From a virus: a stretch of DNA of 64,000 nucleotides. Every line of letters starts with the position of its first letter. The stretch's first letter is position 1. The notes under the pieces are model-generated. The model saw nothing but the letters and a program-made list of their open reading frames with translations. It made no database searches and was not told where the DNA came from. Where the stretch lies: positions 9,250 through 73,249 of IMG/VR virus record IMGVR_UViG_3300024239_000132; one strand, 5' to 3'. Shown one piece after another: positions 7,536-58,085 of the stretch. A program made the translations under genes and the position numbers.

Positions 7536-7570
7536 GAAAAGGCCCAGGTGATTCTGGGCCTTTTCTCTTC
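7536..7570 (+). terminator. Intrinsic terminator between gp51 and vRNAP (possibly bidirectional)
   Basis: GAAAAGGCCCAG-GTGATT-CTGGGCCTTTTC then TCTTC. Confidence 0.8.
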
Positions 7571-7626
7571 TAATTTTCAAGTCTGGCTGATAACTCACTT
7601 GAGACTTTTCAACTCAAGGGGCTGCC

Positions 7627-10600
7627 ATGTCTGGCTACACCGACTTTCTCAAGCGCTTCACCGTAGCAAACGTAGGCCCTGTCCCTGTTCAGCAACCTAA
7701 TGCTGACACATTCTATAAGATTGCCGCTGCTCGTCAGAATGGCACTGGCCAGTCTAATTCAGATCCAGTGGAACAGGATCTCCAGAGCTTGAGCACAAGC
7801 GAGATCATCGCCAAGTATGGTCCTGTCGGCCTCACCATGGTTCAACAAAGAGCCATGGGTGATGCCCGTTATACGCGAGATCGTTACGATCCAGCTGGCA
7901 GCACTCTGACCGATACAGCAATGTCTGTCGGTAAGGGCTTTGCCAATAGCGTCGGCGGTCTGGTCAACCTCGGTGTTGGCCTGGTCAATGATGATGCCGG
8001 AGCTTGGACTGCCGAGAAACTCGGAGACTTCAATAGCTGGGTTCAGTCCAAACAATCTGATGGCCTGAATGCACATCGGCGTGCAAACAAGGTTACGAAC
8101 GAAATTTCGTTCGCAGATAATAAGGCTATCTATGAAAACGAGCGCAAGTCCGAAGGTGATTTTCTTGCAAGCTTGCGCCGTATTGGCCGGGATGCAATGT
8201 CTGCCGTCGGTAATGCGAGTTCGGATGGAACCATACTGACAGACGGCATTGCCGATGCTGGTGGCTCACTGTTGAGTGGTGGCCTGATATCCAAGGGTGC
8301 CCGTGTTCTCGGCAGTAAACTGGTACAGGGTCTTTTGGCCAGAGGTGTCCTGTCCGAAGGTGCTGCACTAAAAGCAGCTGATGTCGGCGGTCGAGTTTCC
8401 ATGCCTGGTACTATCGGCGGTATGGAAGCCGGTGGAGCTTACCAACAGACCGTTCAGCAAGTGATGGCCATGAGCCATGATGATCTTGTTGCTGGATCGC
8501 CAGAATATGTGAAACTTCTTCAGGAAGGTTGGGATCCGGAGGATGCCCAGGTAGAACTGGCTACGAGTGCCGGCCTTACAGCAGCTGCTATCCAGTTTCC
8601 TGTTGCAGCTGCCGCTGGTACTCTGGTCTCCAAGTTCGAGGCTAATCCATTCAAGGGTGCTTTCTCTGGTCTGGGTATTGTCAAGAATGGCGCCAACGAA
8701 GCCATCGAAGAAGCAGTACAGTCTGGTTTTGGACAGCTCGCCGGAAATGTCGGTACCCGGGCATTTGCCGATCAGAACCAAGACCTCACAGATGGTGTAG
8801 GTGAGCAGGCTGGCCTTGGTGCCCTTTATGGCTTCGGCTCGGCAGCAGCAGTTCAGGTCCCTGGTTCAGCAGCTTCGGCTGCCATTGCTGGAACTGTTGC
8901 AGCTGCCAAGGGAGCTAAGGTTCTAGGCAACAAGGCCGTTGACGCATTCGACAAGCGCCTGACTTCGGTGAAGGAAGGCATTGATCAGCTCAATCCTGTC
9001 TCCAAGGATAACATCAATACTGCGGTCGAGCAGACCCTTACTGAAGCTCCTGCTGTTGCTCAGCAGGTTCAGGCTGATGTCGAAGCTGGCACACTGACCC
9101 CTGAACAGGGGGATGCAATCAAGCAGCGTCTGGATACGCTCCAGCAATCGATCGCATTTGATCCAGTAGAGATCGAGGACCGGAATCTGTCTCCCGCCGT
9201 CAAGTCTGTGATTGGTTCGGCTACAAACAAGTTCGATGCATTGCAGAAGGCTGCTCAGCTGGCAGGCAGCAAGCAAGTCGATGTTCCGAGCAGGATCGAA
9301 GCTGCCCTCTACATCAATGACACTTTGAACAAGTTCGGCGCCCAGCTGATCGGTGATTTCACCAGTGCGATTGATATCGTTCCGGACGATCATGCCAGCC
9401 TGCCCAAGCTGCGTGAGTTCGAAGATGTTCTTATAAACTTCCAGCAGAACCCGGAGCTTCAGCAGGCTCGTCAGGCTGCCCAGCAATACGTAGAACGTAT
9501 GCAGGCAGAAGCTCTGTCAGAGCAAGCTGTTGCCACCCCTAAAGGTCAGCAGGCTGTCCGTGGTGTGGTCAGCGTTGCCGAGAGCAACCCTGAATCAGTC
9601 AGCGAGGATCTGGCCAACCTGGTTCTCGAGCATGCTCGTATGGGCCGTGTGAAGCTGACGCCTCAGCAGACCCGAGTTCTGACCAATGCGGCCGTGCTCT
9701 CCAAGACGGGCAACACTTACAAGCTGGAAGCCAAGAAGCGTGAGCTGAAGCCTACTGATATTGTCCGTGCTCAGGTTCTGACTGACGAGATGAAGGCTAC
9801 CCCTGAAGCCAAAGGTGAAGCTCTGTCCCTGGCTCAACATGTCCGCGGCATCAATGATGCTTATCGGGCCAGCAATCTGGAGCTTGCTGCCCAGCGTCTC
9901 AAGAGACTGTCGGACTTTGCCCAGCATTTCCAGAACAAGGTAGCTGCACTCAACACCGCATATGAGACCGGAGCCAACTCCGATCGTAATGCTGTCGAGT
10001 TCGAGGGTCTGAGCCTCAAGGGTGCATGGGGAGCCAAGGGTCGAGCATGGATTAGTCCCACCAAGGTTGGTTCGATCAAGCTGGCTCAGTCGGTGGCTCT
10101 TGAAGCCAAGGCTCTGGCTGACATGGCCAATGGTATGGCCCAGTCCATGCCTGAGCTTGGCATTGGTCCTGTAACACCTGTCGAGCTCAATCCGGATTTG
10201 GTTGGTCCGTCGACCAAGGTTGCCCAGCGTTTCCAGAATGCTCCTGAAAAAGCTCCTACCAAGCTCATCGAGCTTGAGGAGACAGCGAAGGTCGAGCCGG
10301 CACAGGCGGAGCCGAGCAAGGCTCAGACCGAGAGCGTGGCTCCGAAAGCGGAAGTGACTGAAAATGTCACCCCCTCTCCCACCAAAACTGTTGAGGCTGA
10401 GCCTGTCGACAAGCCTGTGGATGAAGTTTCCACAGAGCCTGTTGAAACTTCTCCGGCAGTCGAACCGGTCGAAGCACCGGAGAGTTCTGATCGCGCCAGC
10501 GATCAGGAATCGACAAAGGCTGAGACCCAGACTGAAGAAGCAAAAGCCGATCCAGAACAGGAAGCAAAACCTGTTACAGTAGAGCAGGCATACCCGAATC

Positions 10601-13600
10601 TGTTCGAGACCGAGAAGGTCAAGAACTGGTTTCGTCGTGCCTACAAGTTCCCCAAGGAAGTTCGCTCTCGCTTGGTTGGCAAGGACAGTCCGCTATCGTT
10701 CATCAACGAAGCGGTGCAGTCGAATGATACTTACTCGAAGCTGCTCGAAGGCAAGTCGACCAAGACCCTGACGGCTGATGTCGCCAAGGCTTATGCTGAC
10801 TTTCTGGCCGTTGGCAGTGATGTCTTTGTCGAAATGGACAAGAGCCTCGAGAAGTTCTTGGACAGTGCCCAGAACAAGAAAGAAGGCACCACTTTCCGTG
10901 ATGCCCTGACCAATGGTCTGAGCCTTGATAGCGGCAATCAGGTCAATGGCTTTCCTCGCGGTAAAGCCCTGAACATTGTTGAGCAGAACGAAGATGGTTC
11001 GTTCTCTTACAATGAGCAGTTGGCTGAGGCTGCAATCCTCGCCGGCCTTCAGTGGATGGTCACTGCCAAGGATCGCATGCGTGAGCTCGATGCCGAGGAA
11101 ATTGCCAAGATCACTGGCCTCACCGAAGCCGAAGCAACCGAGCATGTGAACTTCTTTAATGATGGTCTGTGGCGTGTTGCTGCAAAGCGTGATCTCGCCA
11201 ATCTCATCACACGCTACTGGGGTGTGCAAGGCAACCGTGAAGCTCCTGAGGGCTATGTCCGTGGTATTGCTGAAGGTGTGGCGTCTGAGGTTCTGCGTGG
11301 CTTGCAGGCTTCTGGTATGCTCATTGAGGATGGCCGCAAGATCGATGGTAAAGATCATGTGCTGTTCCGCTTTACGGACGAAGCCCAAGACCACTTTGAC
11401 AGGATCGCTGCCTTCCCGTCAGCAATCGAAGAGGCAGTGCTCGTCGAACCGGAGAACGTGAACTACATTGGTTCGGCTCCGGGTGAGGTCGCAACCAATC
11501 AACTGCACGGATCTCCTGTTCCTCTGCTGGATCAGCAGAAGCAAGCACTGGAAGCTGCCCAGAATACACCATTCACGCTCAACCTGAATATGCTGAGCTT
11601 TCTTGAGATGCTCGGTGAGGAAGGTGTGTTGGCTCTGTTCGGAAAGGGTGATCCCACTGGCCGTGGTCTCCTCAAGAAGACTGCCGAGACGATCAAAGGC
11701 TACAACCAGACAGTGCTGTCCGGCTATAAGCACCTGACCAATCTTGTCCGTGAGATGGACAACGTGGCCGACACTACCGGAACCAAGGTAGAAGAGCTGC
11801 CTGTGTTCTTCCGTTACGGTATCTCGTCGGTTGGCCGTATGCAGATGCAGGGCCGTGCTTCGCCCCAGGCAAGCAAGCTGGTTCGTGAGGTTCTGCTGCC
11901 TACGTGGAGCACCTTGGATCTGAGCCAGGTTGGTTCGGAACAGCATAATGCTTTCCTGCTGGCTGTGGGCCAACACATTGGGGTCAAGGTTCACAAGCTG
12001 AAGCCTGGCCAGGCCATCGAAAAGACCATGGATGAGCTCGGCACTAAGTATGCTGGCATCGTCGAAATGATGTCGCAGTGGCTTGCTACCGAAGGCGCCG
12101 AAACTTGGGGTCAGGCAGAGATCGACCGGATCAAGTCGGTCTTGGGGAACAAGGTCGCTCCCGGTGCCGTGCATGCTTTAATGGAGTATGCCCGTTACCT
12201 CAACGACCTCGATGGTCGTAAGGCTCTCCGCACTGGCCTGTATCTTGAAGCTGACGGTGTGACCGATGGTCCAGTCAATGCCCTGATGAATCTGGTGGCT
12301 GGCAAGTTCACACCAGGGTGGCTGGATCTCATGAACCGTGGTGGCATGTACCTTGGATCTAATCCGGTATCTCTTGCCGATTATGTCACCCGGTCAAAGG
12401 ACAGCTCTGAGGATCTGTACCAGAAGACCACCAACTTCCTCTACGAGCACCTGTCTTCGTTGTGGGACAAGCTCTCGTCGAGCTCGCGTGCAAGCGAGAT
12501 GAGCAACATGATGGGTGATCTGTTCATCGATCTGCTGCCTGATGTTCGGGTAGAAGATGGTCAGGTCAAGTTCGAGCGCGGCATTGCCAAGAATCCCCTG
12601 ACCGTGACGGTATATGGTTCTGGTGTCCGCGGTATTGCATCGAAGCTGACCGCTGGTCTGTTGGAAGAGCTCTACGATAGGCTGTCCACCGGTGAGCAGC
12701 TGCTGCCTCAGACAGAGCGTGCTCTGCGTGTTTTGACCACTACCAAGCTGACACGCAAGTTCGGCAAGTACAATGCTGTCCGGGTTGAAGGGATCAATCT
12801 CAACACCGGTTCTGGTGTCGACTTCGAGCTGACCAAGGACATGATCAAGATCCTTGAAGATAACGTGATGCAGCTGTTTGCTCGGCCGCTGACCGGAGCT
12901 GTTCGAGAGATCATGGATGACGCTCTTGAGACTGCCACCACGCTACGGATGGCAACTCAGGCTCAGTCTATTTTCTTCAAGTATGCCTACCGTCAGGCCA
13001 TCGCTGATGCGATTGCCAACAAGGACGGATCAGATGGCACTCTTGGTTCGGACTTCCTGTCCCAGGCTGAACTGGATCAGATATTCAAGGATCTTCAGAA
13101 AAAGTTTCCGATGATCAATACCGGTACTCAGATGATCTGGGTAGGTGGCTCGGCTGAGGCCGATATCGAGCAAGCTGAATTCGGCGGTGCTCTGGATGGC
13201 AGTCTGCGTTCGCCGGGCTATACCTATGGTCCAGAGAACTCTGGTGTTTCGGGTATCCCATTCATTGTCATCTCGACGGGTGATGGTCAGATGATCCTGA
13301 ATGCACTGACCGGAGAACAAGCGCCTCAAGGCACTCTGCCGGTGTTCGATGGCATCAACATGAAGCTCGACACGATCAAGTCTGACAGCGAGCAAATCAA
13401 CAAGGCTGTCTATGATGGCTGGGCCAAGAATCCTGTTCGTGCTGTTCAGCAGAGCTTTGCCCGGTTCATGGCCAACCTCGATACCAGCAATGTCTCTGAT
13501 GAGATGAATGCTGAACTTGAGCAGGCTTTCAGGGATGGACCTGATTTCACTTACGTCGACCCGGCTTTCCATCTTGGAGAGGTAGCCTATCAACTCGATA

Positions 13601-16600
13601 AGGCTGCCAATGAGCTAGATGCTCGCAAGGCAGTGTTGGCCAAGGTCAACATGTCGGTTGATCACATGGCATCGGCTGCTGCACCGTTCACCAAAAGTGA
13701 TGGTGTAGGGCTGCCAGCTGATCCGACTGAGGCCGCCAAGGTCCTCAACGAGATGTATGCTGAGGAACTGGCCAAGGTTACTAAGAAGAAGCCCGAACCA
13801 AGGGCAGAAGTGTCCGAAGATATCTCCGCTGCTCTTGGTTCAATCGGTACGCTCCACTCCAGTGGTGCCAGAATCATTAGCCGGGACGCTATCCGACAAA
13901 TTGTCGGTGAGCTCAACATCCCTCTGGATCAGCGGGGCCTGTTGCGTTCGTCGGTCAATGCTCTGGCAACCAAGGGCTGGACAGTGCTCCATGGCACGCC
14001 TGAGCAGCTCATCGAGTATGCCCGTGAGAATGGCCTTAAGGTTCCTTACGGCTTCAACGACAGCAACGGCATGGTCTTGCCAGCAGACAAGGTGATGTTC
14101 CTCACCTCTGCCAATAGCGAGACCATGACCCATGAATTCCTGCATGCTGCTACCGTGCAGCTGATCCACGCCCACTACTCGGGCAATGGTCAGGTAGCCA
14201 AGGCAGTGCCTGATGCTGTTAAGCGTCTCGAACTGCTGATGGCAGACTTCCTGGCGATCGATCCAAGCACGATTGAAGATCAGGAAACTCGTGCAGAATT
14301 TAAATTTGTTAAAGAGCAGATCGACAAGTTCGATGAGAGCTCAATGAGCGATGCCAATATCAAAACCGGCAAGCTCTCCGAGTTCATGGCTTGGACCCTT
14401 GCGAACCAGAAGCTGTCGGATCTCGCTCGCAAGACCAAGGTCAAGAGCAAACTGGCTCTGATTGCTGACAAAGTTCTCGAGACGCTCAAGAAGCTATGGC
14501 GCCAGACTGGTCTGGCTCCCACCCCTCGAGATGATATCTACAGCAACGTCCGTTTCAACACTCTGTTGCTGATGGAGAACAAGCAGAAGTCGGTGCTGGA
14601 TCCTGCATCGGTCACCAGCATGGCCCAGTTCCAGGCTCGCAACTACGGTGGCAGTGATCGGCTGATCGAGCTAGAGAAGTCGTTTGCTCGCAAGATGTTG
14701 GCTGCGCTTCCTACTGAACCAACACGACGATTCCGTATCGATCAGAAGTATGAAGCGATGCACCGCATGGCTGGTCAGGTTCGCAAGACTTTCCAGTCCA
14801 ATGGCTTTGCCATGAACCAGAAAGAAGCATCGTTCTTCGAGACCTTGGTCATGGCTCTGGCCGTCGACAAGTCGCTCAACGCCAATGCTCAGTCTCGGGC
14901 TGAAGAAGTCTTCCGTGAGGTTCTGTCGAAGCTCAAGGTCGAAGATTTCATGGAAGATCCTGATAGCCAGGATCAGTACGATCGTGATCAAGCGAACCTC
15001 AAGTTCAACACCGTGGTGGGCAATGCTTTCGTCGGACGGGATCTGTCTAGCCGTACCATGCTCATGCCTGCGTTCCTGGCTCTGGCAATGGTACATGAGC
15101 CCTTCCGCAATGCCCTTTCCAAGATGGATCTGCCCAAGTTTCAGAAGAGCTCTGAGGGCACTCTGGATGCATTGCTCAGTAACCTTGGCAATGAAGGTCT
15201 CGATCGCCTTGGCCGTACCCTCTCCGGTGAAGGCAAGTCGGATAATGTGCTCGATGCTGTCGAAGCCCTAACCCGCAAGCTGGCTGAGGTCCAGTCTGAG
15301 CGGGAAGCTGTTATCGAGACGCATATCGATGCCGTCGGCAATACGATCGACAAGACGAATAACTTCGTGGTCGATCAGATGAATCGCTTGAGCCGTGAAG
15401 GGTACGATCGGCTTCAGGATGTTGTTGAAAACTCCGACAACAAGTATGCCCGGGGTGCAGCTCGTGCAGCAGCTGCCGTGGTGAGCTTCTTCAATGAGGA
15501 CATCTCCGGCGCCAATGCCGAGTTCGCTCTGAAGCTGTCGGACAAGTCCACTGTCTGGAAGCCTTTGCGTGAGCTTCTGGTGGAAGTGATCGGCCGTACT
15601 GACGAGAATGCTCCGATCTACGATATGATCAAGGCTGTCCGGTCCTACATCCAGCAGACCCGTCAGATCTATCGTGAGCGTCTGCCCAAGTTTCTGTCGG
15701 AGAAGTTTTCGAGGAAGCTCTCGAAGCAGGAATGGTCTGGCATGTACCATGTCATGGCCAAGACTGATCTGGCTGCCGTTGCTTCCCTTGGTTCAAAGCG
15801 TGTTCTGGATATGCTCCGGGATGCTGGCAAGCTGCGTCAGGAGACTGCTGCTCTGGAGCGTCAGATTGACAAGCTGGATTCGGTGCATTCGACCAAACTC
15901 AAGACTAAAGCCCGAGAGCTGGCTGAATACATGATGCTGCGTAAGGTAAGCAGCAATTTGCTGACCAATGCTGAAAGTGTGGCCAACCTTTATGGTGAGC
16001 TCACGGCTCAGCAGCGCAATAGCCGTGGTGTACCTAAGAAGGCTCTGATCCAGGCAGTCGATCAGCTGGCTACGCTGTACGCTCTGGATCTTAGCGGAGC
16101 CAAGAATCGTCAGGTTGTGGCTGAGCTTGCTGCCAAGGAAACCGGCGGCGTGGAGTTCATGTTGAATTACCTGAAGGGTCAGCGTCAGAATGAACAGGGC
16201 AAGGCTCGTAGTGGCCGGGCACAGGTCAACCACATCAAGGGCTACGTCCCGACGGAAATCCGTTCAGGTGCAAGCCTGATTGTCGCTCCGGATTTGCAGC
16301 ACAACGATCTGGCGGCTCGTGGTTATACCCGGGTTGCTCCTTACAAGGGCTCGGCTGCCGAGGGTCCTTCTGGTTCGCAGAGCTATTATTTTGCTCCGCT
16401 GTCTGCCCGGGCACAGTTCAATCAGGGCATTGCCCAGAACGTTCGCTCGACCTTTTCTGGCGTTGATCCGGCATCGGGCTTCAGCATTGAAAATTATGGC
16501 CTTGGTCGAATTACGAACCAGGAAGCTGTTCGCAAGATCACTAGCCGCATTCGGATGAACCGCGGATCTGAGGCTCTCATACCCATTCGTGACGAGTTCG

Positions 16601-18023: not shown

Positions 18024-18036
18024 CGTTCCTCTTGAC

Positions 18037-18194: not shown

Positions 18195-18200
18195 CAGCAT

Positions 18201-18889: not shown

Positions 18890-18892
18890 CTG

Positions 18893-48018: not shown

Positions 48019-48040
48019 GGGGTATTCCTCTATTGAGAGC

Positions 48041-48487: not shown

Positions 48488-48513
48488 GGTTTTCCTCGGT
48501 GAGTTGATGGGTC

Positions 48514-48945: not shown

Positions 48946-49196
48946 TTTTGCAGGGTCTTGGAAAATTGCCGATTGAAGTACCCGGTCATCCACTCTGCCT
49001 GGATCAGGAGAGCTCGCTGTACTGGTGTTGGCTCGATGAACTGGATGACGGGGATAGCTTCTTGCTCCTGTCTATCAGGAGCATTGGGACATTCATTGCC
49101 CAGAGCAAAGCGGATCTCGGTGTCGAGAGCCTTGCAGTGCTTGCACTGTAAGTGAAAGCCCTCGACCTCCGACGGCACCATTTCGTGGTCTGCCAT
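48942..49196 (-). CDS. Hypothetical protein
   Basis: CKHC...CP; RBS GGAGG. Confidence 0.55.
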   Translation of the reverse strand: MADHEMVPSEVEGFHLQCKHCKALDTEIRFALGNECPNAPDRQEQEAIPVIQFIEPTPVQRALLIQAEWMTGYFNRQFSKTLQK

Positions 49197-49198
49197 GG

Positions 49199-49432
49199 TC
49201 AGTCCTCCGGATCATCAACTTCGGAGGATTCGATGGTCCATCCGGTGGCTTCATTGATCGCACTGGTGGCGCCTTCTTCGGATTGAACCGTGTTCCAGGC
49301 TTCGACTTCATCTTCCTCAGGGCTGAGGCTGATCGATACGTAATCCTGAGCTGCCTGAAGTGCTTCGGATTCCGAATCAGCTTCGACGATTACGGAGATT
49401 GAGGCTGTGATGCCTACGGTGAAATTCGCCAT
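49199..49432 (-). CDS. Small acidic protein
   Basis: MANFTVG...VEADSESEA; RBS AGGAG. Confidence 0.6.
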   Translation of the reverse strand: MANFTVGITASISVIVEADSESEALQAAQDYVSISLSPEEDEVEAWNTVQSEEGATSAINEATGWTIESSEVDDPED

Positions 49433-49494
49433 TGTGGTGCTCCTAGAGCTGTAGTTTTCCTCTTGGTTCCCGGATTCGTTGACCGAAAGCCGAG

Positions 49495-49527
49495 AAAAAA
49501 GAGGACCACCCCTTGTGAGGGTGGTCC
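49495..49527 (-). terminator. Terminator downstream of RNAP2
   Basis: GGACCACCC/GGGTGGTCC stem; A run on the left gives a U tail on the - strand. Confidence 0.75.
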
Positions 49528-49638
49528 GATAGTCAAGGGAGAGTGCCTGAAGGCATTTTCTGTTTAGCCAGACGCAAAGTTTGCGCAAGCTATTTTTGGG
49601 ATTGTTCCGTCATTAGACGTAGAAACCCGCAGATTGTA

Positions 49639-50844
49639 TCAGGAAAGTGAGTAGTTGGACGCCGCAATGTCCGCGGCAAGCGTCGGATCGAGCTTACCAA
49701 TCTGGACTTTGCGTCCAATCAGCTGGCTGATGATGCTGGAGAGCAGCTCTGATTCTGCAATCATCTGGAGCTGGAGATTGTACTGCCGGCGCAGATCGTT
49801 GGCGTAGTGGGGCAGACAGCGGAAGCAGTCATGGATGGGCATGACGCTGAACGGCTTGTTCGGGAGGCTGTTGAGCAGCTTGCGAATTACCGCGGCATCG
49901 ACATGACCAAGGTTGTCCTCATTGAGGTGATCCAGGATGCGAGCCGAGAGGTATCCCGTTTCGAGGTAGTTGGTCCACAAGGTGCAGACCATCTTGTCAT
50001 CCTTGGTTCGGTTGAATGTGCCACGAGGCCCTGAGTGAATGGCATCAGCGATCATGTCGACCTTACGCTGGTCATAAGAGCAGCGACGGACGATCTCACG
50101 CACGATCATGCCATCAATGGAGTGAACCATGTTGGCGCCGAGAGCCCTGCCCTCTGGCATGGGCTGGTTCACCTTGTAGCTGATCTCGATCGGCTGCTCG
50201 TCGAAGTGAATCGTCTCATAGACGGTATCCATGACCTTGGTTCGAACGTGGAAATTGTCCGGGAGAACCCAGTCATGGCTAAGTGTTGTGGGATTCCACA
50301 GATCTCGCATGGTCTCATTGAGTTCCCAGGCAGCTGGGCAGAATTCCTTGAGGATATCGTAGAAGAGCTCGAGGAGCTCACCTTCTCCGAAGATCTTCTT
50401 GGGCATGGCAGTGGAGCTATAGAGCGAGGTCATAATCGCTTGCTTGGTATCGCTCCGCTTGATCTTGGCATTGCCACCTGAGCGCTGGAGCATCAGGTCA
50501 TAGATATTGGTGTAAGCGTCCTCACGGTGGCCAGTGTCGACGACATTGCAGAGCTCGGCAGCTGAGCGATCACCGGTAAGGCAAGCAAGAATCTGAAGCC
50601 CACTGGAAGTGGCATCGAGACCCACGCAGTAGCCAATAGGCAGACCCTTCTGAACCTCCCTGTACGCCTTTACAGCGGCGAAATAGAGGGCAGGTTCTTC
50701 TGCCTGGGTCATCAGGCTCTCGAGGTGAGGCTCATTGGCCTCGAACCAGGCAAGGCGATCGTCCCAGTCGAGCTTGTCGTGGCCCATGTGGTTGGCGATA
50801 TCGATCTGAAGGTACTGCTTTCCGGTGAAGAGTTGCATGGTCAT
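49639..50844 (-). CDS. RNA polymerase II subunit 2 (N4 gp16-like)
   Basis: YLQIDIAN, DATSSGLQ, RSDTKQAIMTSLYSS, NMVHSIDG, IHDCF. Confidence 0.93.
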   Translation of the reverse strand: MTMQLFTGKQYLQIDIANHMGHDKLDWDDRLAWFEANEPHLESLMTQAEEPALYFAAVKAYREVQKGLPIGYCVGLDATSSGLQILACLTGDRSAAELCNVVDTGHREDAYTNIYDLMLQRSGGNAKIKRSDTKQAIMTSLYSSTAMPKKIFGEGELLELFYDILKEFCPAAWELNETMRDLWNPTTLSHDWVLPDNFHVRTKVMDTVYETIHFDEQPIEISYKVNQPMPEGRALGANMVHSIDGMIVREIVRRCSYDQRKVDMIADAIHSGPRGTFNRTKDDKMVCTLWTNYLETGYLSARILDHLNEDNLGHVDAAVIRKLLNSLPNKPFSVMPIHDCFRCLPHYANDLRRQYNLQLQMIAESELLSSIISQLIGRKVQIGKLDPTLAADIAASNYSLS

Positions 50845-50857
50845 GGTTCGGTTTCCT

Positions 50858-51049
50858 TCAGTGTTCGACTTCAGCAGATATAAAAGAGGTGACGCCAGCT
50901 GGCGGCTGTATTCCGAGACCTCGAATGAGATGGTATCCGCTGCCCTGATGCTTGAGCACGATGCCGTACCTGTCCCAGACACCTGGGAAGACGACACGCT
51001 GACCCGGTTGGGCAGTGGTGCGGAGCTGGTAGAGAAATCCGTGAGCCAA
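50858..51049 (-). CDS. Hypothetical protein
   Basis: TTG start with AGGAG RBS. Confidence 0.5.
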   Translation of the reverse strand: MAHGFLYQLRTTAQPGQRVVFPGVWDRYGIVLKHQGSGYHLIRGLGIQPPAGVTSFISAEVEH

Positions 51050-51185
51050 GGTGGACTCCTGTTGGCAATAAAAAGCCGACCGTCAGGGGGACTGGCGGCC
51101 GGCGTGTGTGGCTATGATGTGTGGTTTGATTAACGCATGATCAGTCTCCTGGGTTTGAGCGAGTGCCGAACCAAGAAAAGGACTA

Positions 51186-51434
51186 TCACTGAACCTCGGG
51201 CAATTCGTCGGTCCACCAAGCTAAGAGATGAGGTCCTTTCAGAATGACATCCAGAGGTGGTACAGCAGGTATGTGGAATATCCTTTCGGGAATTCTGTCC
51301 GCTTCTTCCTCGATGTCATCTATTACCCAGTCAGCTTGCTTCCATAAGTACGCAGCCTCATTCGGAGTATTGGCCCAGACTAGGCCATCGTAGTTTTCCC
51401 GCCCTACTTGTTTCATTACAATGTAAAGGTTCAT
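51186..51434 (-). CDS. Hypothetical protein
   Basis: TGATG coupling. Confidence 0.55.
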   Translation of the reverse strand: MNLYIVMKQVGRENYDGLVWANTPNEAAYLWKQADWVIDDIEEEADRIPERIFHIPAVPPLDVILKGPHLLAWWTDELPEVQ

Positions 51435-51655
51435 CAGCTGTCCTTGCGTCCGAGGATCTCATAGACATGATCCCACAGGGCTCGATCGACGATCCGTCGG
51501 TCCCCGAAGAACCAGACTGAGACAACATCCTGGCGCCATATGCCATCATCTCCCATTACGAGAGCAGGAGCTCCCGGAACACCGAATACGGGCTCGGAGA
51601 TGATGTGACCTTCACAGGTCAAGGGCGAGTCATTGGTGTTGAGTTGAGTAGCCAT
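51434..51655 (-). CDS. Hypothetical protein
   Basis: Coupled ORF in the early operon. Confidence 0.55.
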   Translation of the reverse strand: MATQLNTNDSPLTCEGHIISEPVFGVPGAPALVMGDDGIWRQDVVSVWFFGDRRIVDRALWDHVYEILGRKDS

Positions 51656-51657
51656 GA

Positions 51658-51906
51658 TTAATCTCGCTTAGGTGGGAGATAGCTGATCAGATTCTCGATC
51701 TGATCCAGGCGAGTACGCAGCATTTGCAGGTTCTCAGGGGTGGCTTCACCCAAAGGAACCAGGGCCTCTACAGAGTCACCATTCATGTGTTTGATTGAGA
51801 GCTGTCGATCAGCGTCGACGACGAGGTAGCTGGCTTGCCTACCCTTCAGAAAGAATCTGAAGGAGGCTGAACCAGGCTCCTGCTTGAGGAGTCGGAGAGC
51901 GACCAT
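51658..51906 (-). CDS. Hypothetical protein
   Basis: 82-aa ORF. Confidence 0.5.
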   Translation of the reverse strand: MVALRLLKQEPGSASFRFFLKGRQASYLVVDADRQLSIKHMNGDSVEALVPLGEATPENLQMLRTRLDQIENLISYLPPKRD

Positions 51907-52110
51907 AATTCATGCTCGGTGTCTGGTATTCATGGGTATGGGCTTCGGTTGAGCCCTGATTGGTCTGGCCCTTAGGGCATCAGACTTGAACTTTGAAGGT
52001 TTAATTCTCCTTTGTGATCCTGCTCCACGTTCAGTGAGTATGATCTGAACCAGAAAGTGAAGCAGGATATCGGTGGTCAAGGTGGATCACTCCTGAGAAT
52101 TGTCAGGAGT

Positions 52111-52956
52111 TTATTCCACTAGCTCCTTGTCAGCAAGCTGGACTACGGCCTTGTTCCAGCTCGTGCCCATGTACGAAATGAAATAGCCCTGACAGTACGT
52201 CCGACCTCGCTTGTCGTACTTGTGGGTGAGGTAGAAGCTGTTGCCTAAGGACAGGATCTTGCCGATCACTTCCTTGGCTCCGCGGTCGTATTTTTCAAAC
52301 GCACGGACACGCTTTTGGAAGTCGGTCTTGGACTCGCCTTCCTTGGGCTTGTCGAGGTTACGCCACTCATTGCGAACCAGGAATGCCGTACCCTCGTCGA
52401 TCGAGAAGCGGATCTTGTTCATGCGATTGATGTGGTCGAGGCACACATCGTCATCATGATGGTTCTGCTTCAGGATGATCGAGCCACGGGCAGTGAGGTA
52501 GCCGGTCTCACGGTTGTTGGTTACCGGCTCTGGTTCGATGACCATAGGCAGTGGGAACTGGTACTTGGCAATCTCTTCGTGGACTTCAGGCCCTACGTCG
52601 AACTCCATGATGAACTTGCCGGTGATCTCGTCATAAGTGACCAGATCAACCTCGGCACACTTGTAGAGCATGTCAGCAGCCAGCTGGCTGGCATTGTGAA
52701 GAGGCTCGAAGTGCTTACGCAGGATGCCCACCAGAGTGCTGACATCAGCACGCTTGTGCAGGACCATCTGAACCAGAAGTTCGATACCGAACTCTGGCAG
52801 GATCGAGTGCTCCTTCATGTGGGCTACGAAATCTTCCTCCTCGCACTCAAGGAATTCCTTGCGAATGCGTGGGAGGAGCTGGTTCTTCGAATAAAGGTGC
52901 TCCAGCTCCATCTGGAGATCCAGACGAGCAGCGTCGATGTCGGTTCTAGCGAGCAA
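52111..52956 (-). CDS. RNA polymerase II subunit 1 (N4 gp15-like)
   Basis: YQFPLPMV, DVCLDHIN, YDKRGRTY (DxRGR motif). Confidence 0.93.
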   Translation of the reverse strand: MLARTDIDAARLDLQMELEHLYSKNQLLPRIRKEFLECEEEDFVAHMKEHSILPEFGIELLVQMVLHKRADVSTLVGILRKHFEPLHNASQLAADMLYKCAEVDLVTYDEITGKFIMEFDVGPEVHEEIAKYQFPLPMVIEPEPVTNNRETGYLTARGSIILKQNHHDDDVCLDHINRMNKIRFSIDEGTAFLVRNEWRNLDKPKEGESKTDFQKRVRAFEKYDRGAKEVIGKILSLGNSFYLTHKYDKRGRTYCQGYFISYMGTSWNKAVVQLADKELVE

Positions 52957-53188
52957 TGATACTCTCCTTCAGCTTATCTCGTAGGGATGCTTTGAGGTAG
53001 CGACGCTTGAAACCCATGAGTTCACGGGTGGCATCTGCTGCATCGATGGCTTCTTTGGTCTCAGCTGAGCCAAATTCGCCTATCATCATTTTTCGATGAC
53101 TGACCCGTCTCTCGAAATCCTCGATAGACACATGCTCCCAAGCGACCTCCTCGACAGTCTTCGAGGCCATGTCTGATCGGACGGTCAT
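52946..53188 (-). CDS. Early mini-protein family member 5
   Basis: VEEVAWEH...MIGEFGSAETKEAI...ELMG. Confidence 0.6.
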   Translation of the reverse strand: MTVRSDMASKTVEEVAWEHVSIEDFERRVSHRKMMIGEFGSAETKEAIDAADATRELMGFKRRYLKASLRDKLKESIIAR

Positions 53189-53487
53189 GGATCTGTCCCT
53201 TCAGCGTACATGTTGAACCCTGCCCAGTAGCCTTCTGGTTCTCCTTTCGAATATGAAATGGACACAACATCTCGGTGAGCTCTGGCAAGTTTGCCGGCTC
53301 TGCTGATGATGTCTTTGGTCTTGTTGTTGAGCGGTCGATCCCCGATCCATAAATGGATGTTCACACCGTCAGGACCTGCAAGCTCAGTATCGTAGGGGAT
53401 TGGATCTTCCCCTTTGAGCCAGATGGTTCCTTCAGCTTTGGTGTTGGGATTGGGGATCTGGATGGGACTGCGAGAAGCCCGTCTCAT
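53185..53487 (-). CDS. Hypothetical protein
   Basis: ATGA overlaps on both sides. Confidence 0.5.
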   Translation of the reverse strand: MRRASRSPIQIPNPNTKAEGTIWLKGEDPIPYDTELAGPDGVNIHLWIGDRPLNNKTKDIISRAGKLARAHRDVVSISYSKGEPEGYWAGFNMYAEGTDP

Positions 53488-53669
53488 GCTGCATGTCCGC
53501 GGATAAGGGCATCGACGATCAGCTGTCGACGGCGCTTCTCTGCTGCCACTTTGGAGATGAGACCAGGATTGCATTGAACCAGGTAGGGATAGCTCCCTTG
53601 GGTCGTGTGTCCTGCTTTCAGGGTGATGAGGTCATCACTGCGAAAGGTGAATGGAAAGATGTTGGTCAT
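53484..53669 (-). CDS. Hypothetical protein
   Basis: ATGA overlap. Confidence 0.55.
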   Translation of the reverse strand: MTNIFPFTFRSDDLITLKAGHTTQGSYPYLVQCNPGLISKVAAEKRRRQLIVDALIRGHAA

Positions 53670-53857
53670 GCTTCACCTGATTCGACTACGTCGACCCACT
53701 CAATACGGCATTCTCCGTCATGAGCTTCGCAGTAACTGCCTTTGTCGAAGGTAGTGGAAAGTTCCCATTGATTGGTCTCGAGGTTCCAGGATGCATAAGC
53801 ATCAGCGAGTACCTCATCGCTCCCACACGAGGAGCATACAGGTTTTTGTTTGGTCAT
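53666..53857 (-). CDS. Zinc-ribbon protein
   Basis: CSSCGSDEVLADA...W...YCEAH; first gene after a vRNAP promoter. Confidence 0.65.
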   Translation of the reverse strand: MTKQKPVCSSCGSDEVLADAYASWNLETNQWELSTTFDKGSYCEAHDGECRIEWVDVVESGEA

Positions 53858-53878
53858 GATCTTATCCTTGGTTCAGAG

Positions 53879-53898
53879 CCCAAGAGGCGCGAAGCGCC
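53879..53898 (-). promoter_or_regulatory. vRNAP hairpin promoter
   Basis: Template (+) strand CCC-AAGA-GGCGC-GAA-GCGCC matches the N4 pattern xCC-N4-stem-GNA-stem. Confidence 0.85.
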
Positions 53899-53904
53899 AG
53901 GGCA

Positions 53905-54099
53905 TTAGGGAACCAGAAGCCGAACTGTATCGATCGCTCTGCCTAAGGCATCGAACACGGCATCTTCAGGAAAGCGTCTGAGCATCTCCTGAAACATGTT
54001 CCATCTTATATCCTGGGCTGCCCTGTTATCCAGCCAGTCGGGGAACAGGTAGGGATAATGCTCGTATTCCAGAGCGAGTTCATCGAGGCTTTTGGTCAT
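53905..54099 (-). CDS. Early mini-protein family member 4
   Basis: LDELALEY...MLRRFPEDAVFDALGR. Confidence 0.6.
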   Translation of the reverse strand: MTKSLDELALEYEHYPYLFPDWLDNRAAQDIRWNMFQEMLRRFPEDAVFDALGRAIDTVRLLVP

Positions 54100-54290
54100 T
54101 GACCCATCAAGGCTTTGATCTCGTACCATCGCTCGATCGCTCTCTTGGTGGCCTTCTTCCCATGAAGCCGGATCATCTTAAGATAGATCTGGTCACGGGT
54201 GTTGTGGCTTTCCAACCATTTCCAGTCGGCCACTGGTTTTGTGAATACGAAGCGTTTCGCCAAGAGCTCAAGGTCTTTGTTGGCTTTCAT
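54096..54290 (-). CDS. Early mini-protein family member 3
   Basis: LELLAKRF...MIRLHGKKATKRAIER...LMG. Confidence 0.6.
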   Translation of the reverse strand: MKANKDLELLAKRFVFTKPVADWKWLESHNTRDQIYLKMIRLHGKKATKRAIERWYEIKALMGQ

Positions 54291-54451
54291 AGTCCCATCA
54301 GCTTTCTGATTACTTGAGCTCTACGAATGGCGTCTGCGGCTGCTTGGCTGCCATAAAGGACATCCATTCTTTGGCGTCGGTTCCATTTTTCAGTGACGCT
54401 CTTGGAGCAGCAATATTCAGCAGCCAGTTGATCAAGATCAGGCTTGCTCAT
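54287..54451 (-). CDS. Early mini-protein family member 2
   Basis: LDQLAAEY...MDVLYGSQAAADAIRR...LMG. Confidence 0.6.
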   Translation of the reverse strand: MSKPDLDQLAAEYCCSKSVTEKWNRRQRMDVLYGSQAAADAIRRAQVIRKLMGL

Positions 54452-54630
54452 TGCTTGGCTCCGATGAGCTCGAAAACATGACGCATCCTTCTGATGGCCC
54501 TGTCTGTCTCGACACCACCGAATACACCGCACATCTGTGCATAGAGGGTGATACTATGGTGTACCGAGATCGATGGATCGAGGTACTTGGCAGCCAGTTC
54601 TTCGAGGGATTCTCGCTTAGCTTTTGCCAT
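54448..54630 (-). CDS. Early mini-protein family member 1
   Basis: LEELAAKY...MCGVFGGVETDRAIRR...LIG. Confidence 0.6.
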   Translation of the reverse strand: MAKAKRESLEELAAKYLDPSISVHHSITLYAQMCGVFGGVETDRAIRRMRHVFELIGAKQ

Positions 54631-54871
54631 GGTGAGATAACCTTGCCATCAGCTGCCGACCGCTCTCGCTACGCTTCGCGATCTGGCAGCTTGAATGCCT
54701 GGTGAAGAGGGATGTGTAGTAGGCAACAGTTTTGCCTGTCACATCCTTCCTGGCTCGCTCCGCTGCCGATGGGACAAGCACAATAGGCTTGCCGCATATG
54801 GTGCAGTTAGAGGCCACGGTCTTTGATCTCGTTCTGACGAGCAAGTTCAGCCTTACCACTGGCCCACTCAT
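54617..54871 (-). CDS. Zinc-binding hypothetical protein (start uncertain)
   Basis: CTICGKPIVLVPSAAERA...HSSC. Confidence 0.55.
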   Translation of the reverse strand: MSGPVVRLNLLVRTRSKTVASNCTICGKPIVLVPSAAERARKDVTGKTVAYYTSLFTRHSSCQIAKRSESGRQLMARLSHHGKS

Positions 54872-55079
54872 CGTAGTCCTCTTCTCCGCCTCGGATGAAC
54901 ATCTCGTCGATCTCGTTATCAGTGAGCCTGATGCGATTGCCGAAGTCTGTCTCTATTTCCCACAAGGGTCTGCCCTTGAGATAGTCGAGCATGGACTGAC
55001 AGATATCTTCGTCAGGGATCTGCCGGCGAACGATGGCATTGCCCATTCGTCTGGGCTCTTTGGTGTAGAGGATCAGCAT
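54807..55079 (-). CDS. Hypothetical protein
   Basis: RBS AAGG; 90 aa. Confidence 0.55.
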   Translation of the reverse strand: MLILYTKEPRRMGNAIVRRQIPDEDICQSMLDYLKGRPLWEIETDFGNRIRLTDNEIDEMFIRGGEEDYDEWASGKAELARQNEIKDRGL

Positions 55080-55162
55080 ATCATTTGCCTTTCAGGCACA
55101 AGAGAAAGAGCAGCCGATCGAATGACCGGCTGCCTCTCAAGGATGATGATGACGCTTGTTGC

Positions 55163-55582
55163 TTACGCTGCGAGCTTGAAGCTCTGGACTCGGCCGAGCT
55201 TCTTGTCAGCCCAGTCAAGACGTTGACGATAGTTCATGCCTGCAAGCATTAGCAGGACATTGGCATGATCAGTGCTGTGACACAGCAAGTTCATGCCTTG
55301 GAGGTGATCGATCTCTTCGAGAATCGTATCTGTGTGTGCGAGCAGGATCTCATAGCGTTCCAGGCACTCTTCAGGTGTGCCATCTACGCCAGCTCGAAAT
55401 GGGTTTGCCCAGACCGATCCCTGGTCAACATATACGGTATTGGCCGGCAGGATACTTGAGGGAATATCCTTGCTATTCAGCACCTTACCCGTCCGCGGTG
55501 CTTGGCCCGTCGTCGACTGCATTTCACTCGTTCCTTGAATCATTGTTGTCTTTCCAAGGGGCAAGAGCCCCAGGAAAAACAA
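55163..55582 (-). CDS. DUF4326-like protein (start probably at MQSTT)
   Basis: VYV..GSVWANPF...DGT...LQGMNLLC...HANVL. Confidence 0.7.
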   Translation of the reverse strand: MFFLGLLPLGKTTMIQGTSEMQSTTGQAPRTGKVLNSKDIPSSILPANTVYVDQGSVWANPFRAGVDGTPEECLERYEILLAHTDTILEEIDHLQGMNLLCHSTDHANVLLMLAGMNYRQRLDWADKKLGRVQSFKLAA

Positions 55583-55610
55583 AGCGGTTACGAACCGCCA
55601 CCAGACTTAC

Positions 55611-55836
55611 TCCACCTTTAGTTGGATACCGGAATTGGCTTTCCGGTTTTGTTCCCGTCCGACCCCACAATTAACACAGGTTTAACCTTGTGCAAGTGGG
55701 TTGCGATGAGAATCTATCGACAGAATTTTTAGGTCTGTTGGTGTTCTAGCTCACTTTTGCGGAAAAGTGCTGATTCTGAACTTTTAGCATATCGCCGGTT
55801 GAATCGAGTCTGAACTATCCTCGACATAAAGTTGGA
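55611..55836. ncRNA. Candidate structured RNA downstream of gp2
   Basis: Closing TCCACCTTTA/TAAAGTTGGA and at least six internal hairpins; no ORF. Confidence 0.4.
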
Positions 55837-55871
55837 AGGCCCCCTACTTTCGTAGAGGGCCCCCGGTAGCG

Positions 55872-56312
55872 TTAAGCTGCCTCTGGCATGGCCAGAGAGA
55901 ACTTCGGAGCGAATCGATCGCTCACGGCGACAGGTGCTTCGGTTTCGGATTCACGACGACGCATCTGGATCACCAGACCACCTTCCGAACCAGGCATGCT
56001 GAGGATGATCTCTTCGCCTGGTGCCAGCGATTCCGCCATCTTCTGGAGGTCGGCCAGCAGTGCGTTCTTGGCTGCAACGAATGCAGCATAGTCGGTGTCA
56101 CCACGACGAGGCGTCTGTGCCTGCTGCATGGTATCAAGACCGATGCCAAAGGGCAGCGATACGAACGGATAGTCCGCATCACCGGTCTCGTAACCGATGT
56201 TGAGGTAGACGTCCGAACGGATCTTCTCTTCAGCCTGGGCGTGATGTCCAAGGACAGCCTGGCCGAACGTCTTCTTGGCAGGAGCAGCGGCAGTGTTGTT
56301 ACGACGGATCAT
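55872..56312 (-). CDS. ssDNA-binding RNAPII coactivator (N4 gp2-like)
   Basis: YLNIGY...FVSLPFGIGLD...LAPGEE...IQMRR; directly after a vRNAP promoter. Confidence 0.85.
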   Translation of the reverse strand: MIRRNNTAAAPAKKTFGQAVLGHHAQAEEKIRSDVYLNIGYETGDADYPFVSLPFGIGLDTMQQAQTPRRGDTDYAAFVAAKNALLADLQKMAESLAPGEEIILSMPGSEGGLVIQMRRRESETEAPVAVSDRFAPKFSLAMPEAA

Positions 56313-56370
56313 GAGTATTTCCTTACGTTGGGGTTCAAGATGGTCGGCCCGTTGACGGATGAGCCGAACC

Positions 56371-56390
56371 ACCAAAAGACGCGAAGCGTC
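56371..56390 (-). promoter_or_regulatory. vRNAP hairpin promoter
   Basis: ACC-AAAA-GACGC-GAA-GCGTC, near-identical in layout to N4 P2. Confidence 0.9.
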
Positions 56391-56403
56391 CAGCTAGGGT
56401 TGA

Positions 56404-56598
56404 TTAAGCCTTAGGCTTGCGGAGCATCCACAAGTTGATCGCTGCGTTGAACAGCAGGATCCACATGGCAATGCCGAGGCCATGCCAGTCGAACATGAGC
56501 GGAGTACCGTCTGTGTTCTCCTGTGCAGCAATGAGCAGAGCCACTGCTGCGAACATGAGTGCGTTGCATATGTACACGTTTTGTTCTCCTTTATGCAC
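56404..56598 (-). CDS. Small membrane protein
   Basis: Two hydrophobic segments; true start probably GTG at about 56577. Confidence 0.5.
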   Translation of the reverse strand: MHKGEQNVYICNALMFAAVALLIAAQENTDGTPLMFDWHGLGIAMWILLFNAAINLWMLRKPKA

Positions 56599-57043
56599 CG
56601 ATGATGTGGTTGATGAAGCTCATGCCGTAGAGGTAGATCAGCACCCAGAGGAGCAGTGACAGACCAAGGCAGAGGAGCATCCTGACGGGAATGGAAAGCA
56701 TAGCTTCAGGCCCTTAGATTCAGGAGTTTATGGTATTGCCTGGTGACCCGAATGTAATCGAGCCACGCAGCAATATGAGCGAAGTGGTAGCCGTCGAAGT
56801 ACGAGGCTTCACTGTAGTTGAGCAGGTTCATCACGGCCCTATGAATTGGGGAACCAGTGAGAGATGATCCCACTGGTTCAGGTGATTAGATGTCCTCGAT
56901 CGAGCCAATGCTGATGAGGTGATTATAAGCCTCAGATATGGAGCCAAGCTCACATACAATGAGACGATCAGCTTCCTGCTCGCCTACTGCATCCTCGATG
57001 AGTTCGAGCATGAGTGCTTCGGACATGAGATGATCTCCTTGGT

Positions 57044-57400
57044 TCAGTAGTTGAATATCCACACAGGCTTGTTCAGCTTCTGCATGGTCTCGATCATGTG
57101 CTTGGTGCCCTTGGACTGACCGTCCCAGAAGGCTATGAGAGCGTCAGCAACAGCTGCCATTTCAGCATTGCGACGGTAGCCGGCTGAGCGGCCATAACGG
57201 CCCCAGTCAGCAGGCATTTCGATCGTTGGCCACTGGTTCCAGGACCAGATTTCATAGGCCGTAAGATCAGCACCACGAGCCATACCGCAGATGAGCGTTG
57301 GAGCTTCCTTGAGCTCACTAAGCTCAGTGATTGAGCTGATGCCTTGATACATGAAGTTCAGGTCTGTGAAGTCACGGCCACCAGCAATGATGAGGTTCAT
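57044..57400 (-). CDS. SLOG-family (DUF2493/YspA-like) protein
   Basis: IIAGGRDF, GMARGAD, AGYRRNAEM, FWDGQSKGTKHMI. Confidence 0.85.
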   Translation of the reverse strand: MNLIIAGGRDFTDLNFMYQGISSITELSELKEAPTLICGMARGADLTAYEIWSWNQWPTIEMPADWGRYGRSAGYRRNAEMAAVADALIAFWDGQSKGTKHMIETMQKLNKPVWIFNY

Positions 57401-57424
57401 GAGAGTTCTCCTGAGAGGGTTAAT

Positions 57425-57444
57425 TCCATCAGAAGCGAAGCTCT
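57425..57444 (-). promoter_or_regulatory. vRNAP hairpin promoter (imperfect stem)
   Basis: TCC-ATCA-GAAGC-GAA-GCTCT. Confidence 0.7.
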
Positions 57445-57712
57445 TCAGGAATGTTCAGCAGTCCGACTGTTCATAGGAACAGGATGCTGGTGAGTTCAGC
57501 ATGTAGAGGCATGCTGAGGCGATGATGATGCCTATGGTGAGGGCATCGAGATGTGCTCGTAGAGCACGAATGAAGTTGAGCATGGAGTTGACTCCACTTA
57601 ACTGATGCCCAACTGCGTTGAGCATCGTCTGCGCCTTCGGCTTGACTATCCCGTGAGTGTTATCCCAAGGATAAGTTTACCGGTGAGAGCCGAAGCTCCC
57701 ACCGATAGGGTT

Positions 57713-58042
57713 TCAGGCCGCTTTCGCAGCCTGAGGATTGACGATGGATTGAAGTTTGGAGAAGGTTTCATTGTAATACTTTTCCAATGCAGGATCTTTA
57801 CAATGATCTTCGATCTTTTTCTTGCGTTCAGCAGTCTCGAGAGAGATTTCCTCGAGCTTACGCTCTTGGTGCAAGTATAGATCTACCTTCTGATCGAAGC
57901 GTTGCTTCTCCTGTTGGTGACGGACAAAGGCATTGGCCATGTCCAGTGAGTTGGATACTGTGTTTACAATACCAGATACTGCATTTGCAGTGTCGGATAC
58001 TGTGCTGAGGATAGAGCCTACAGCGATACGTGCATTAGCCAT
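57713..58042 (-). CDS. N4 gp1-like first early protein
   Basis: MANARIAVGSILSTVSDTANAV...; first gene after the outermost vRNAP promoter. Confidence 0.7.
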   Translation of the reverse strand: MANARIAVGSILSTVSDTANAVSGIVNTVSNSLDMANAFVRHQQEKQRFDQKVDLYLHQERKLEEISLETAERKKKIEDHCKDPALEKYYNETFSKLQSIVNPQAAKAA

Positions 58043-58065
58043 GATATGATCTCCGATGGAACAAT

Positions 58066-58085
58066 TCCATGAGATGCGAAGCATC
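58066..58085 (-). promoter_or_regulatory. vRNAP hairpin promoter (P1-like)
   Basis: TCC-ATGA-GATGC-GAA-GCATC. Confidence 0.88.

Follow-up and report, generated by a model that had tools for sequence, protein, structure and literature searches.

The virus record IMGVR_UViG_3300024239_000132 of IMG/VR (73,249 nt; 100% complete according to CheckV) represents a complete 73-kb N4-like phage of the Schitoviridae, and its bases 9250-73249, a stretch of 64,000 nt, are the window to which the positions below refer unless another sequence is named. The phage carries what appears to be a full set of functions for integration into a tRNA gene, along with early promoters of the type read by a virion RNA polymerase (vRNAP), and searches of the entire genome returned no canonical repressor; how an integrated copy might be kept silent is the question considered here. 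The final 126 nt of the record are a copy of its bases 6-131, and in the likely source run the phage is represented, among the Logan contigs, by one circularly permuted contig of unit length (73,148 nt). Hallmarks of the Schitoviridae are present: the giant vRNAP gene (7627-17985, + strand, 3452 aa) with four Pfam domains (vRNAP_dom, 2.4e-41; N4_RNAP_helical, 5.9e-34; vRNAP_dom_2; vRNAP_plug), a two-subunit RNAPII, and an N4-type single-stranded DNA-binding protein (SSB; 19467-20306, - strand; phrog_743, 7.9e-71). The small, RNAP1-like subunit of RNAPII (52111-52956, - strand; phrog_2166, 1.5e-101) is 54% identical to the RNAP1-like protein of a Rhizobium phage, and the large, RNAP2-like subunit (49639-50997, - strand; phrog_2051, 1.3e-157) is 59.7% identical to its counterpart in Rhizobium phage RHph_X2_28B and about 50% identical to that of coliphage N4. 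The closest cultured relatives are N4-like phages of Rhizobium and Sinorhizobium, and the gene order is that of RHph_X2_28B except for one variable slot, between the genes for dCTP deaminase and thymidylate synthase (thyX), which is where the lysogeny cassette resides. The + strand encodes the late genes, from 59410 through the terminase, across the record start to the portal and capsid genes, and on to the vRNAP gene, while the - strand encodes the early and middle genes, from about 59.3 kb down to 17.9 kb. The host is likely of the Novosphingobium type.

The integration cassette and its origin

The cassette is built around a tyrosine integrase of 368 aa (42918-44024, - strand; Pfam Phage_integrase, 4.9e-11, 43.1 bits versus a cut-off of 27.1; phrog_1, 2.4e-22), in which R207, K232, H298, R302, W326, and Y336, which we take to be the catalytic residues, are invariant across 14 homologues. 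The 48-nt core of the phage attachment site (attP; 42085-42132, + strand) corresponds to the tRNA-Val(CAC) 3' end (anticodon arm through CCA) and is identical, at 48 of 48 positions and in matching orientation, to the tRNA in L008, L024, L030, L062, L063, and the sister contig L003. A repeat search identified arm-type repeats on both sides of the core, AATCCATACAAAGCCCATACAG in the left arm (42002-42023, + strand) and CATACAAA, occurring twice, in the right arm (42217-42244, + strand). The CATACAAA-type motif is found on both attP arms and is shared with L077, an N4-like contig with the order integrase (76% identity), attP, and thyX, in which the motif surrounds a different tRNA fragment, as would be expected for sites of a conserved arm-binding domain of the integrase. 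An inverted repeat that extends from the CCA end of the tRNA fragment (42130-42165, + strand; 12-nt arms, 92% complementary) is a possible terminator for the rebuilt tRNA gene.

The integrase start is overlapped by the gene for a 131-aa winged-helix protein (43868-44263, - strand; Pfam HTH_Tnp_Tc5, 23 bits versus a cut-off of 22.2), and in 26 of the 28 loci compared such a partner gene is kept in this upstream position. The core of the partner model is a winged helix, with predicted local distance difference test (pLDDT) values of 75-88. When folds were compared, MerR regulators and excisionases scored about equally, and weakly (Z 5-6.4; 5.2 for the Pukovnik Xis and 5.0 for TorI), while Foldseek returned nothing significant for the model (best E-value 0.38), PDB sequences held no match to either the integrase or the partner, and none of the nine relatives found in a search for partner homologues had an informative name. 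The partner is a likely candidate for an excisionase-type protein. Two small genes lie between the integrase and attP, both missing from the bacterial loci that carry the cassette: a 90-aa open reading frame (ORF; 42598-42870, - strand; 92% identity in the sister phage L003), for which ESM Atlas gave no family and a poor model, and a gene for a 108-aa protein (42325-42651, + strand; 97% identity in L003), which adjoins attP on the strand opposite to the lytic genes. The latter protein has a lipoprotein-type signal peptide, MIVLGLSLALGAC, with a putative lipobox that was read by eye, and this predicted lipoprotein is a candidate for cargo expressed in the lysogen. Overall, the sequence supports an integration kit (integrase, partner, and tRNA-Val attP) that appears full and working.

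Homologues of the integrase, at 56-82% identity, are encoded at 23 genome loci of Sphingomonadales beside tRNA-Val(CAC); a tRNA scan of 18 of the 23 recognized this tRNA in 16, mostly about 130 nt past the integrase and convergent with it. These tRNA-Val(CAC) prophages or islands (L004-L031) resemble the phage in that the partner gene overlaps the integrase start, but, unlike the phage, they encode S24 or HTH_3 repressors, an Ogr/Delta activator (near the integrase in L005), or restriction-modification and Fic genes, and none of the loci, bacterial or from IMG/VR, in which the homologous cassette is found shares any other protein with it. Proteins of the S24, HTH_3, or HTH_26 type are encoded within 10 kb of the integrase in L005, L008, L012, and L019 (four of the four loci with the partner gene), and none in L009. 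The cassette has been taken over from resident temperate elements. The sister contig L003, with an integrase of 99% identity, is nearly identical to the phage and was the one match in a scan with the vWA protein, and a search of the phage collection with the integrase produced eight records at 26-31% identity, none of the 70-80 kb typical of the N4-like genomes considered here.

As to integration itself, the integrase scan of metagenome contigs found L063, which comprises the initial 17 kb of a Novosphingobium-like contig of 427,367 nt. Its bases 1-7112 encode an ATPase (59% identity), a vWA protein (49-50%), a conserved hypothetical protein (the 174-aa protein; 47%), a dCTP deaminase (54%), the partner (54%), and the integrase (78-79%), all five genes with homologues in the phage, as well as the integrase gene, being open. 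These N4-like genes are followed by a full tRNA-Val with the exact core and then by genes for a NUDIX protein, an HD-domain protein, and 6-phosphogluconolactonase, which are syntenic with Novosphingobium tRNA-Val loci at 80-87% amino-acid identity, and a second record, L062, has the same junction of prophage and tRNA-Val. Given reads that exceed the core in length, it is unlikely that the 48-nt repeat has produced a chimera at this point. The sequence thus presents L063 as an integrated N4-like prophage, a relative of this phage, and therefore argues that integration by the group is real. In three other Logan runs covering 37000-47000, the contigs end inside the core, leaving attP and the junctions attL/attR unbridged; as the 48-nt core exceeds the assembler word, this has no bearing on integration either way.

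Early promoters and the search for a repressor

Hairpins with a 3-nt loop closed by C...G were scanned for early promoters, these being defined by a stem of 5 bp, GAA as the loop, and GCGAAGC as the heptamer. Exactly three sites on the + strand, the template of the leftward early genes, follow this rule, all of them intergenic, no more than 5.5 kb from the left end and with early genes downstream, compared to a mean of 0.21 in dinucleotide shuffles, of which 0 out of 300 reached three. The first hairpin (GATGC-gaa-GCATC, 58073-58085, + strand) precedes, by about 30 nt, the ATG at 58041 that begins the homologue of the Rhizobium phage's first gene, the second (GACGC-gaa-GCGTC, 56378-56390, + strand) is upstream of the early gene 55872-56375, and the third (GGCGC-gaa-GCGCC, 53886-53898, + strand) is upstream of the run of small ORFs that leads to the RNAPII genes. 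A weaker, fourth GCGAAGC site, with a 3-bp stem (57435-57441, + strand), is upstream of the gene starting at 57400, and over 20 nt its flank shares 90% identity with that of the first hairpin. When applied to bases 1-8000 of the N4 genome (NC_008720) as a control, the hairpin rule identified three hairpins, located a short way upstream of the genes gp1, gp2, and gp15. One has the GCGAAGC heptamer, and the three have in common an A-rich spacer, CCAAAA, which also precedes the second hairpin here, as it does in N4 P2/P3. N4 is described as having three early promoters, each a GC-rich heptamer flanked by inverted repeats (PMC4496689). The proposal, made in a preliminary description of the window, that its recognizable early promoters are vRNAP hairpins is thus upheld, and the analogy supports early promoters of the vRNAP type; in N4, such promoters are used by no polymerase other than the injected one.

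Sites resembling sigma-70 promoters are depleted in 44001-64000 (one versus 13.3 +/- 3.9 expected) and not elsewhere, and the intergenic regions inspected did not reveal a late-promoter motif in common. Perfect hairpins with stems of at least 6 bp and a 3-nt loop are in excess (36 versus 18.3 +/- 4.0 in shuffles), seven of them being intergenic, all within the - strand block; in phage LUZ7, both early and middle promoters are such hairpins. The terminator that had been noted between the vRNAP gene and the late genes upstream was found again, as a terminator-like hairpin at 7536-7565 (+ strand; 13 pairs, seven of them GC, a loop of 4 and a T-rich tail, TCTTCTAATT), between the end of a 770-aa late gene (7531) and the vRNAP start (7627). 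Terminator-like sites overall are not enriched in 1-20000 (16 versus 15.5 expected), and no sigma-70-like site was found between this hairpin and the vRNAP start.

The same description had seen no CI/Cro-like or S24 repressor in the 64 kb, and every search made here bears this out. No S24 or Cro/CI-type repressor was recognized by Pfam, at E<=0.01 for the 117 ORFs of the window or at E<=1 for 54 small ORFs, and no repressor families by NCBIfam (58 ORFs) or by PHROGs (the window and the remaining 9.2 kb). Six-frame searches of the whole 73-kb genome with Peptidase_S24 (PF00717), HTH_3 (PF01381), and MarR_2 (PF12802) produced 0 matches at E<=0.1, while control genomes gave matches. The 9.2 kb outside the window have family matches to late genes only (tail fibre, endolysin, portal, and others), and the reservation that a repressor might reside in that part of the genome is thereby lifted, the full-genome search with hidden Markov models (HMMs) having found none. 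The Pfam scan, used in the same way on the donor-type loci L005, L008, L012, and L019, was positive, and thus it detects repressors where they are expected, which argues that the cassette was captured without one. The arrangement of a lambda-type switch is likewise absent, the opposite-strand genes within the lytic block being the lipoprotein gene and a tailspike-like pair. Weak Pfam matches to helix-turn-helix (HTH) domains are limited to four proteins, the partner (43868-44263) and those encoded at 31067-31405, 31459-32037, and 20309-20767; of these, the protein 31067-31405 is 60% identical to a protein of a lytic Rhizobium phage and therefore belongs to the N4-like core. By these searches, a canonical repressor appears to be encoded nowhere in the complete genome.

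Proposed dormancy without a repressor, and rival explanations

In N4, vRNAP produces RNAPII and its cofactors, these lead to SSB, and the host RNA polymerase then transcribes the late genes, including the vRNAP gene, with SSB as the activator of late transcription (PMC4496689). Were the same cascade to operate here, vRNAP would transcribe the early genes for RNAPII and cofactors, RNAPII the middle genes, including SSB, and the host polymerase, with SSB on the assumption of an N4-like dependence, the late genes, including that for vRNAP. A prophage would then be silent because the polymerase cascade is a closed loop whose first enzyme is present only in virions: in a cell devoid of vRNAP nothing would start, the integrated genome would be off by default, and a repressor for maintenance would therefore be dispensable. 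Lysogeny would arise at a low frequency, from infections whose cascade stalls once the integrase is made, protection from superinfection would be by exclusion, possibly through the lipoprotein, and not by repressor immunity, and leaky host transcription of a late or an early gene would re-close the loop and cause induction. Of this scheme, the part for which we have some, if tentative, preference is repressor-free maintenance with rare and unregulated entry into lysogeny. The broader version, of dormancy without any repressor through the closed polymerase loop, with immunity replaced by an entry or exclusion function (possibly the attP-side lipoprotein) and induction by stochastic or stress-driven host transcription of a late gene, we consider unlikely to hold in its entirety. 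The repressor-free lysogeny suggested in the preliminary description stands in part. What the data support are the integration module, with an integrated relative, the vRNAP-type promoters, and the failure to find a canonical repressor. A silence that is truly repressor-free, and induction by way of host-expressed vRNAP or gp2/RNAPII, are not supported, and dilution of vRNAP alone fails to explain how the cascade would be stopped at establishment.

At this step the case for repressor-free silence is incomplete, and a number of points, here and in the following paragraphs, weigh against it. The silence is a deduction from N4 biology, across core proteins that are about 50-60% identical. Entry of the N4 genome requires early and middle transcription (PMC4496689), and therefore the integrase would be made in cells that already hold RNAPII, so that dilution of vRNAP alone cannot account for the arrest of the cascade, and nothing was identified in the genome to halt replication and late expression when lysogeny is established. 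A dedicated regulator that these searches did not recognize, encoded by an unassigned small ORF or provided by the winged-helix protein in addition to, or in place of, an excisionase role, might provide for this by blocking the vRNAP promoters or late transcription, a rival explanation that deserves serious consideration, if not yet credence. About 40 small ORFs (37.7-42.0 kb and 51-59 kb) have no family by PHROGs, Pfam, or NCBIfam, and small repressors often escape HMMs. The winged-helix gene, directly upstream of the integrase gene and kept in nearly all loci compared, is positioned for cotranscription with it, and the MerR-like fold of the modeled protein is common to regulators and excisionases. 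The Cox/Apl proteins of P2-like phages offer a likeness for such a protein. A further precedent is phage LUZ100, in which a MarR-like winged-helix regulator upstream of the integrase has been proposed to regulate lysogeny (PMC10134795). However, the pair of winged-helix and integrase genes is also found in elements that have S24 or HTH_3 repressors of their own, which fits the role of an excisionase, the PDB sequence searches offered no functional lead for either protein, and the repeat search detected no repeated operator-like motif overlapping the three hairpin promoters.

Two more specific candidates bear on a dedicated regulator. One is a protein with a MarR_2 domain (33.9 bits versus a cut-off of 27) encoded in L063, 1.4 kb upstream of the cassette. 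It has no homologue in this genome, however (tblastn E 1.3; hhalign probability 0.2 in comparison with the ORF at the position of the L045 homologue, just downstream of RNAP2), and its relatives are encoded in the N4-like L045 and L042, which have no integrase, and we have rejected it as the missing repressor. The other is an exact 17-nt palindrome, forming the hairpin ACAATCTCAAAGATTGT on the - strand, that is present twice (59152-59168 and 33751-33767) and could be an operator. The two copies compare to 0.13 expected, one lies in non-coding DNA at the left end and the other where thyX starts, and there is none in the other 9.4 kb; the palindrome may otherwise be a promoter or a terminator.

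A different explanation is that the phage is functionally lytic, and that a recently acquired cassette enables no more than rare or passing integration in the course of lytic growth, without stable, regulated dormancy, as has been argued for T7-like podoviruses that bear an integrase. The integrase is absent from all 15 related N4-like IMG/VR records, L003 apart (eleven of them at least 90% complete, with the phage's own record as a positive control), and the acquisition of the cassette is therefore recent, which leaves stable lysogens of this phage unproven. The N4-like RNAP2 is likewise absent from 777 bacterial genomes, 401 of the host order and 376 of the genus, a search with a positive control, a search with vRNAP_dom in 401 genomes of the class had weak matches at most (the weak matches in these host-genome searches were 20 bits, and 24.5 bits below cut-off), and no integrated copy of this phage itself, or of another N4-like element, was found in the order and genus genomes. 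In the source run, as noted, the phage is one circularly permuted contig of unit length. Integration has been detected in pelagiphages, but no lysogen was obtained (bioRxiv 10.1101/410191), and stable lysogens were not obtained for LUZ100 either (PMC10134795). The prophage of L063 is cut by the contig end after 7.1 kb. On the other side, the cassette is intact, with a conserved overlap of partner and integrase, and its arm sites are kept between lineages with different tRNA cores (the window and L077), and thus selection on function can be argued. The relative in L063 is integrated on a 427-kb chromosomal contig with the integrase and the five shared genes open, and the cargo genes between the integrase and attP are in the usual place of genes expressed in lysogens. 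On balance, we regard a functionally lytic phage, with no stable lysogeny, as improbable, and retain our tentative preference for repressor-free maintenance with rare entry into lysogeny.

Neighboring genes and comparison with known systems

Some additional features of the genome were noted along with the above. The tailspike-like pair (34366-37205, + strand), on the late strand inside the middle-gene block, is made up of a 90-aa ORF followed by a gene for an 853-aa protein with a TPTPTP linker. The larger gene (34644-37205) was considered as a lysogeny gene and rejected, as the encoded protein, with a TPTP linker and no family match, is replaced in L003 and looks like a swappable tailspike; in L003 the 90-aa ORF of this cassette is kept at 98% identity, and the large gene is swapped for a different one of 931 aa. 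The G+C content is 0.56-0.59 in 34001-42000 versus about 0.52-0.55 elsewhere, a region that coincides with the tailspike cassette and the array of unassigned ORFs by attP, and this composition suggests a foreign origin. Between that array and the tailspike-like gene, a non-coding Rfam motif, DUF3800-VII RNA, is recognized at 37655-37739 (- strand; 54.2 bits versus a gathering score of 36.2), and Rfam had no match at the genome's left end. L003 also has an extra gene (7319-7873 of that contig, + strand) for a 184-aa Nmad5 (nucleotide-modification associated) protein, between the vWA gene and a 139-aa gene, where the window has a 190-nt spacer with a hairpin of a 10-bp stem (45422-45444). One of the proteins with weak HTH matches (31459-32037, - strand, 192 aa) has weak similarity to the rIIB C-terminus, and rIIA/rIIB of the Rhizobium relative are missing at this position. 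The early region encodes proteins with a YspA/SLOG-type domain (57044-57400, - strand; 5.2e-08) and DUF4326 (55163-55582, - strand; 1.4e-10), the latter being the annotation of N4 gp12 too, and the first gene of the left end, upstream of the first N4-type promoter, encodes a protein with a Tad2-like (Thoeris anti-defence) domain (58322-58825, - strand; 8.1e-24). The terminase large subunit (61076-63655, + strand, 859 aa) has two parts that match terminase and, separating them at residues 379-424, a LAGLIDADG_3 match; this segment may be an intein or a homing-endonuclease insertion.

Like coliphage N4, the phage has the giant vRNAP gene, the two-subunit RNAPII, and SSB. As in N4, too, its early genes lie on one strand and its late genes on the other, and upstream of early genes there are three hairpin promoters, on the template strand, that contain a GC-rich heptamer. 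It differs from N4 in its integration functions: to our knowledge, N4 as a whole has neither an integrase nor an attP. No integrase is annotated in the first 8 kb of NC_008720. The nearest analogues of such a life style are the temperate-type podoviruses of the T7-like group, LUZ100 (PMC10134795) and the HTVC019P-type pelagiphages (bioRxiv 10.1101/410191), but in these the phage RNA polymerase gene is early and can be reached by the host polymerase, and a MarR-like repressor has been proposed for this reason. In the phage described here, a late gene encodes the first polymerase, which is a virion protein, and, when the MarR-integrase modules are compared, the gene upstream of the integrase encodes a winged-helix protein of another family, with no MarR_2 match in the genome.

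N4-like viruses with lysogeny functions have been reported previously. Zheng et al. (2023; mSystems, PMC10654107) described 54 N4-like genomes in which hallmark genes of lysogeny are present, together with 40 bacterial contigs, most of them from Moraxella, and thus, as here, N4-like genomes with an integrase and integrated N4-like regions in bacterial contigs; the record analysed here may be among the 54 genomes. The word 'repressor' occurs 0 times in that paper, and its passages on integrase, lysogen, temperate, and prophage mention no attP and no control logic (the words 'attP' and 'promoter' were not searched there). Beyond that work, and for a phage of Sphingomonadales, the present data offer the core and the arms of attP, the partner gene, the cassette's origin, the promoters, and a control-validated absence of recognizable repressors. 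In a literature search, we came upon no proposal of how N4-like lysogeny is controlled; N4-like viruses with an integrase are already published, but not a logic for their control.

In textbooks, lysogeny depends on a repressor. If the scheme proposed here is true, circuit logic alone would keep a phage silent, the protein with which its transcription must begin being absent from the lysogen. The record makes a test case for this, with mapped hairpin promoters and attP, a likely host genus, an integrated relative, and the usual repressors checked and found absent. It also bears on the practice of calling N4-like phages "strictly lytic" for want of a repressor gene, as a small cassette can confer integration.

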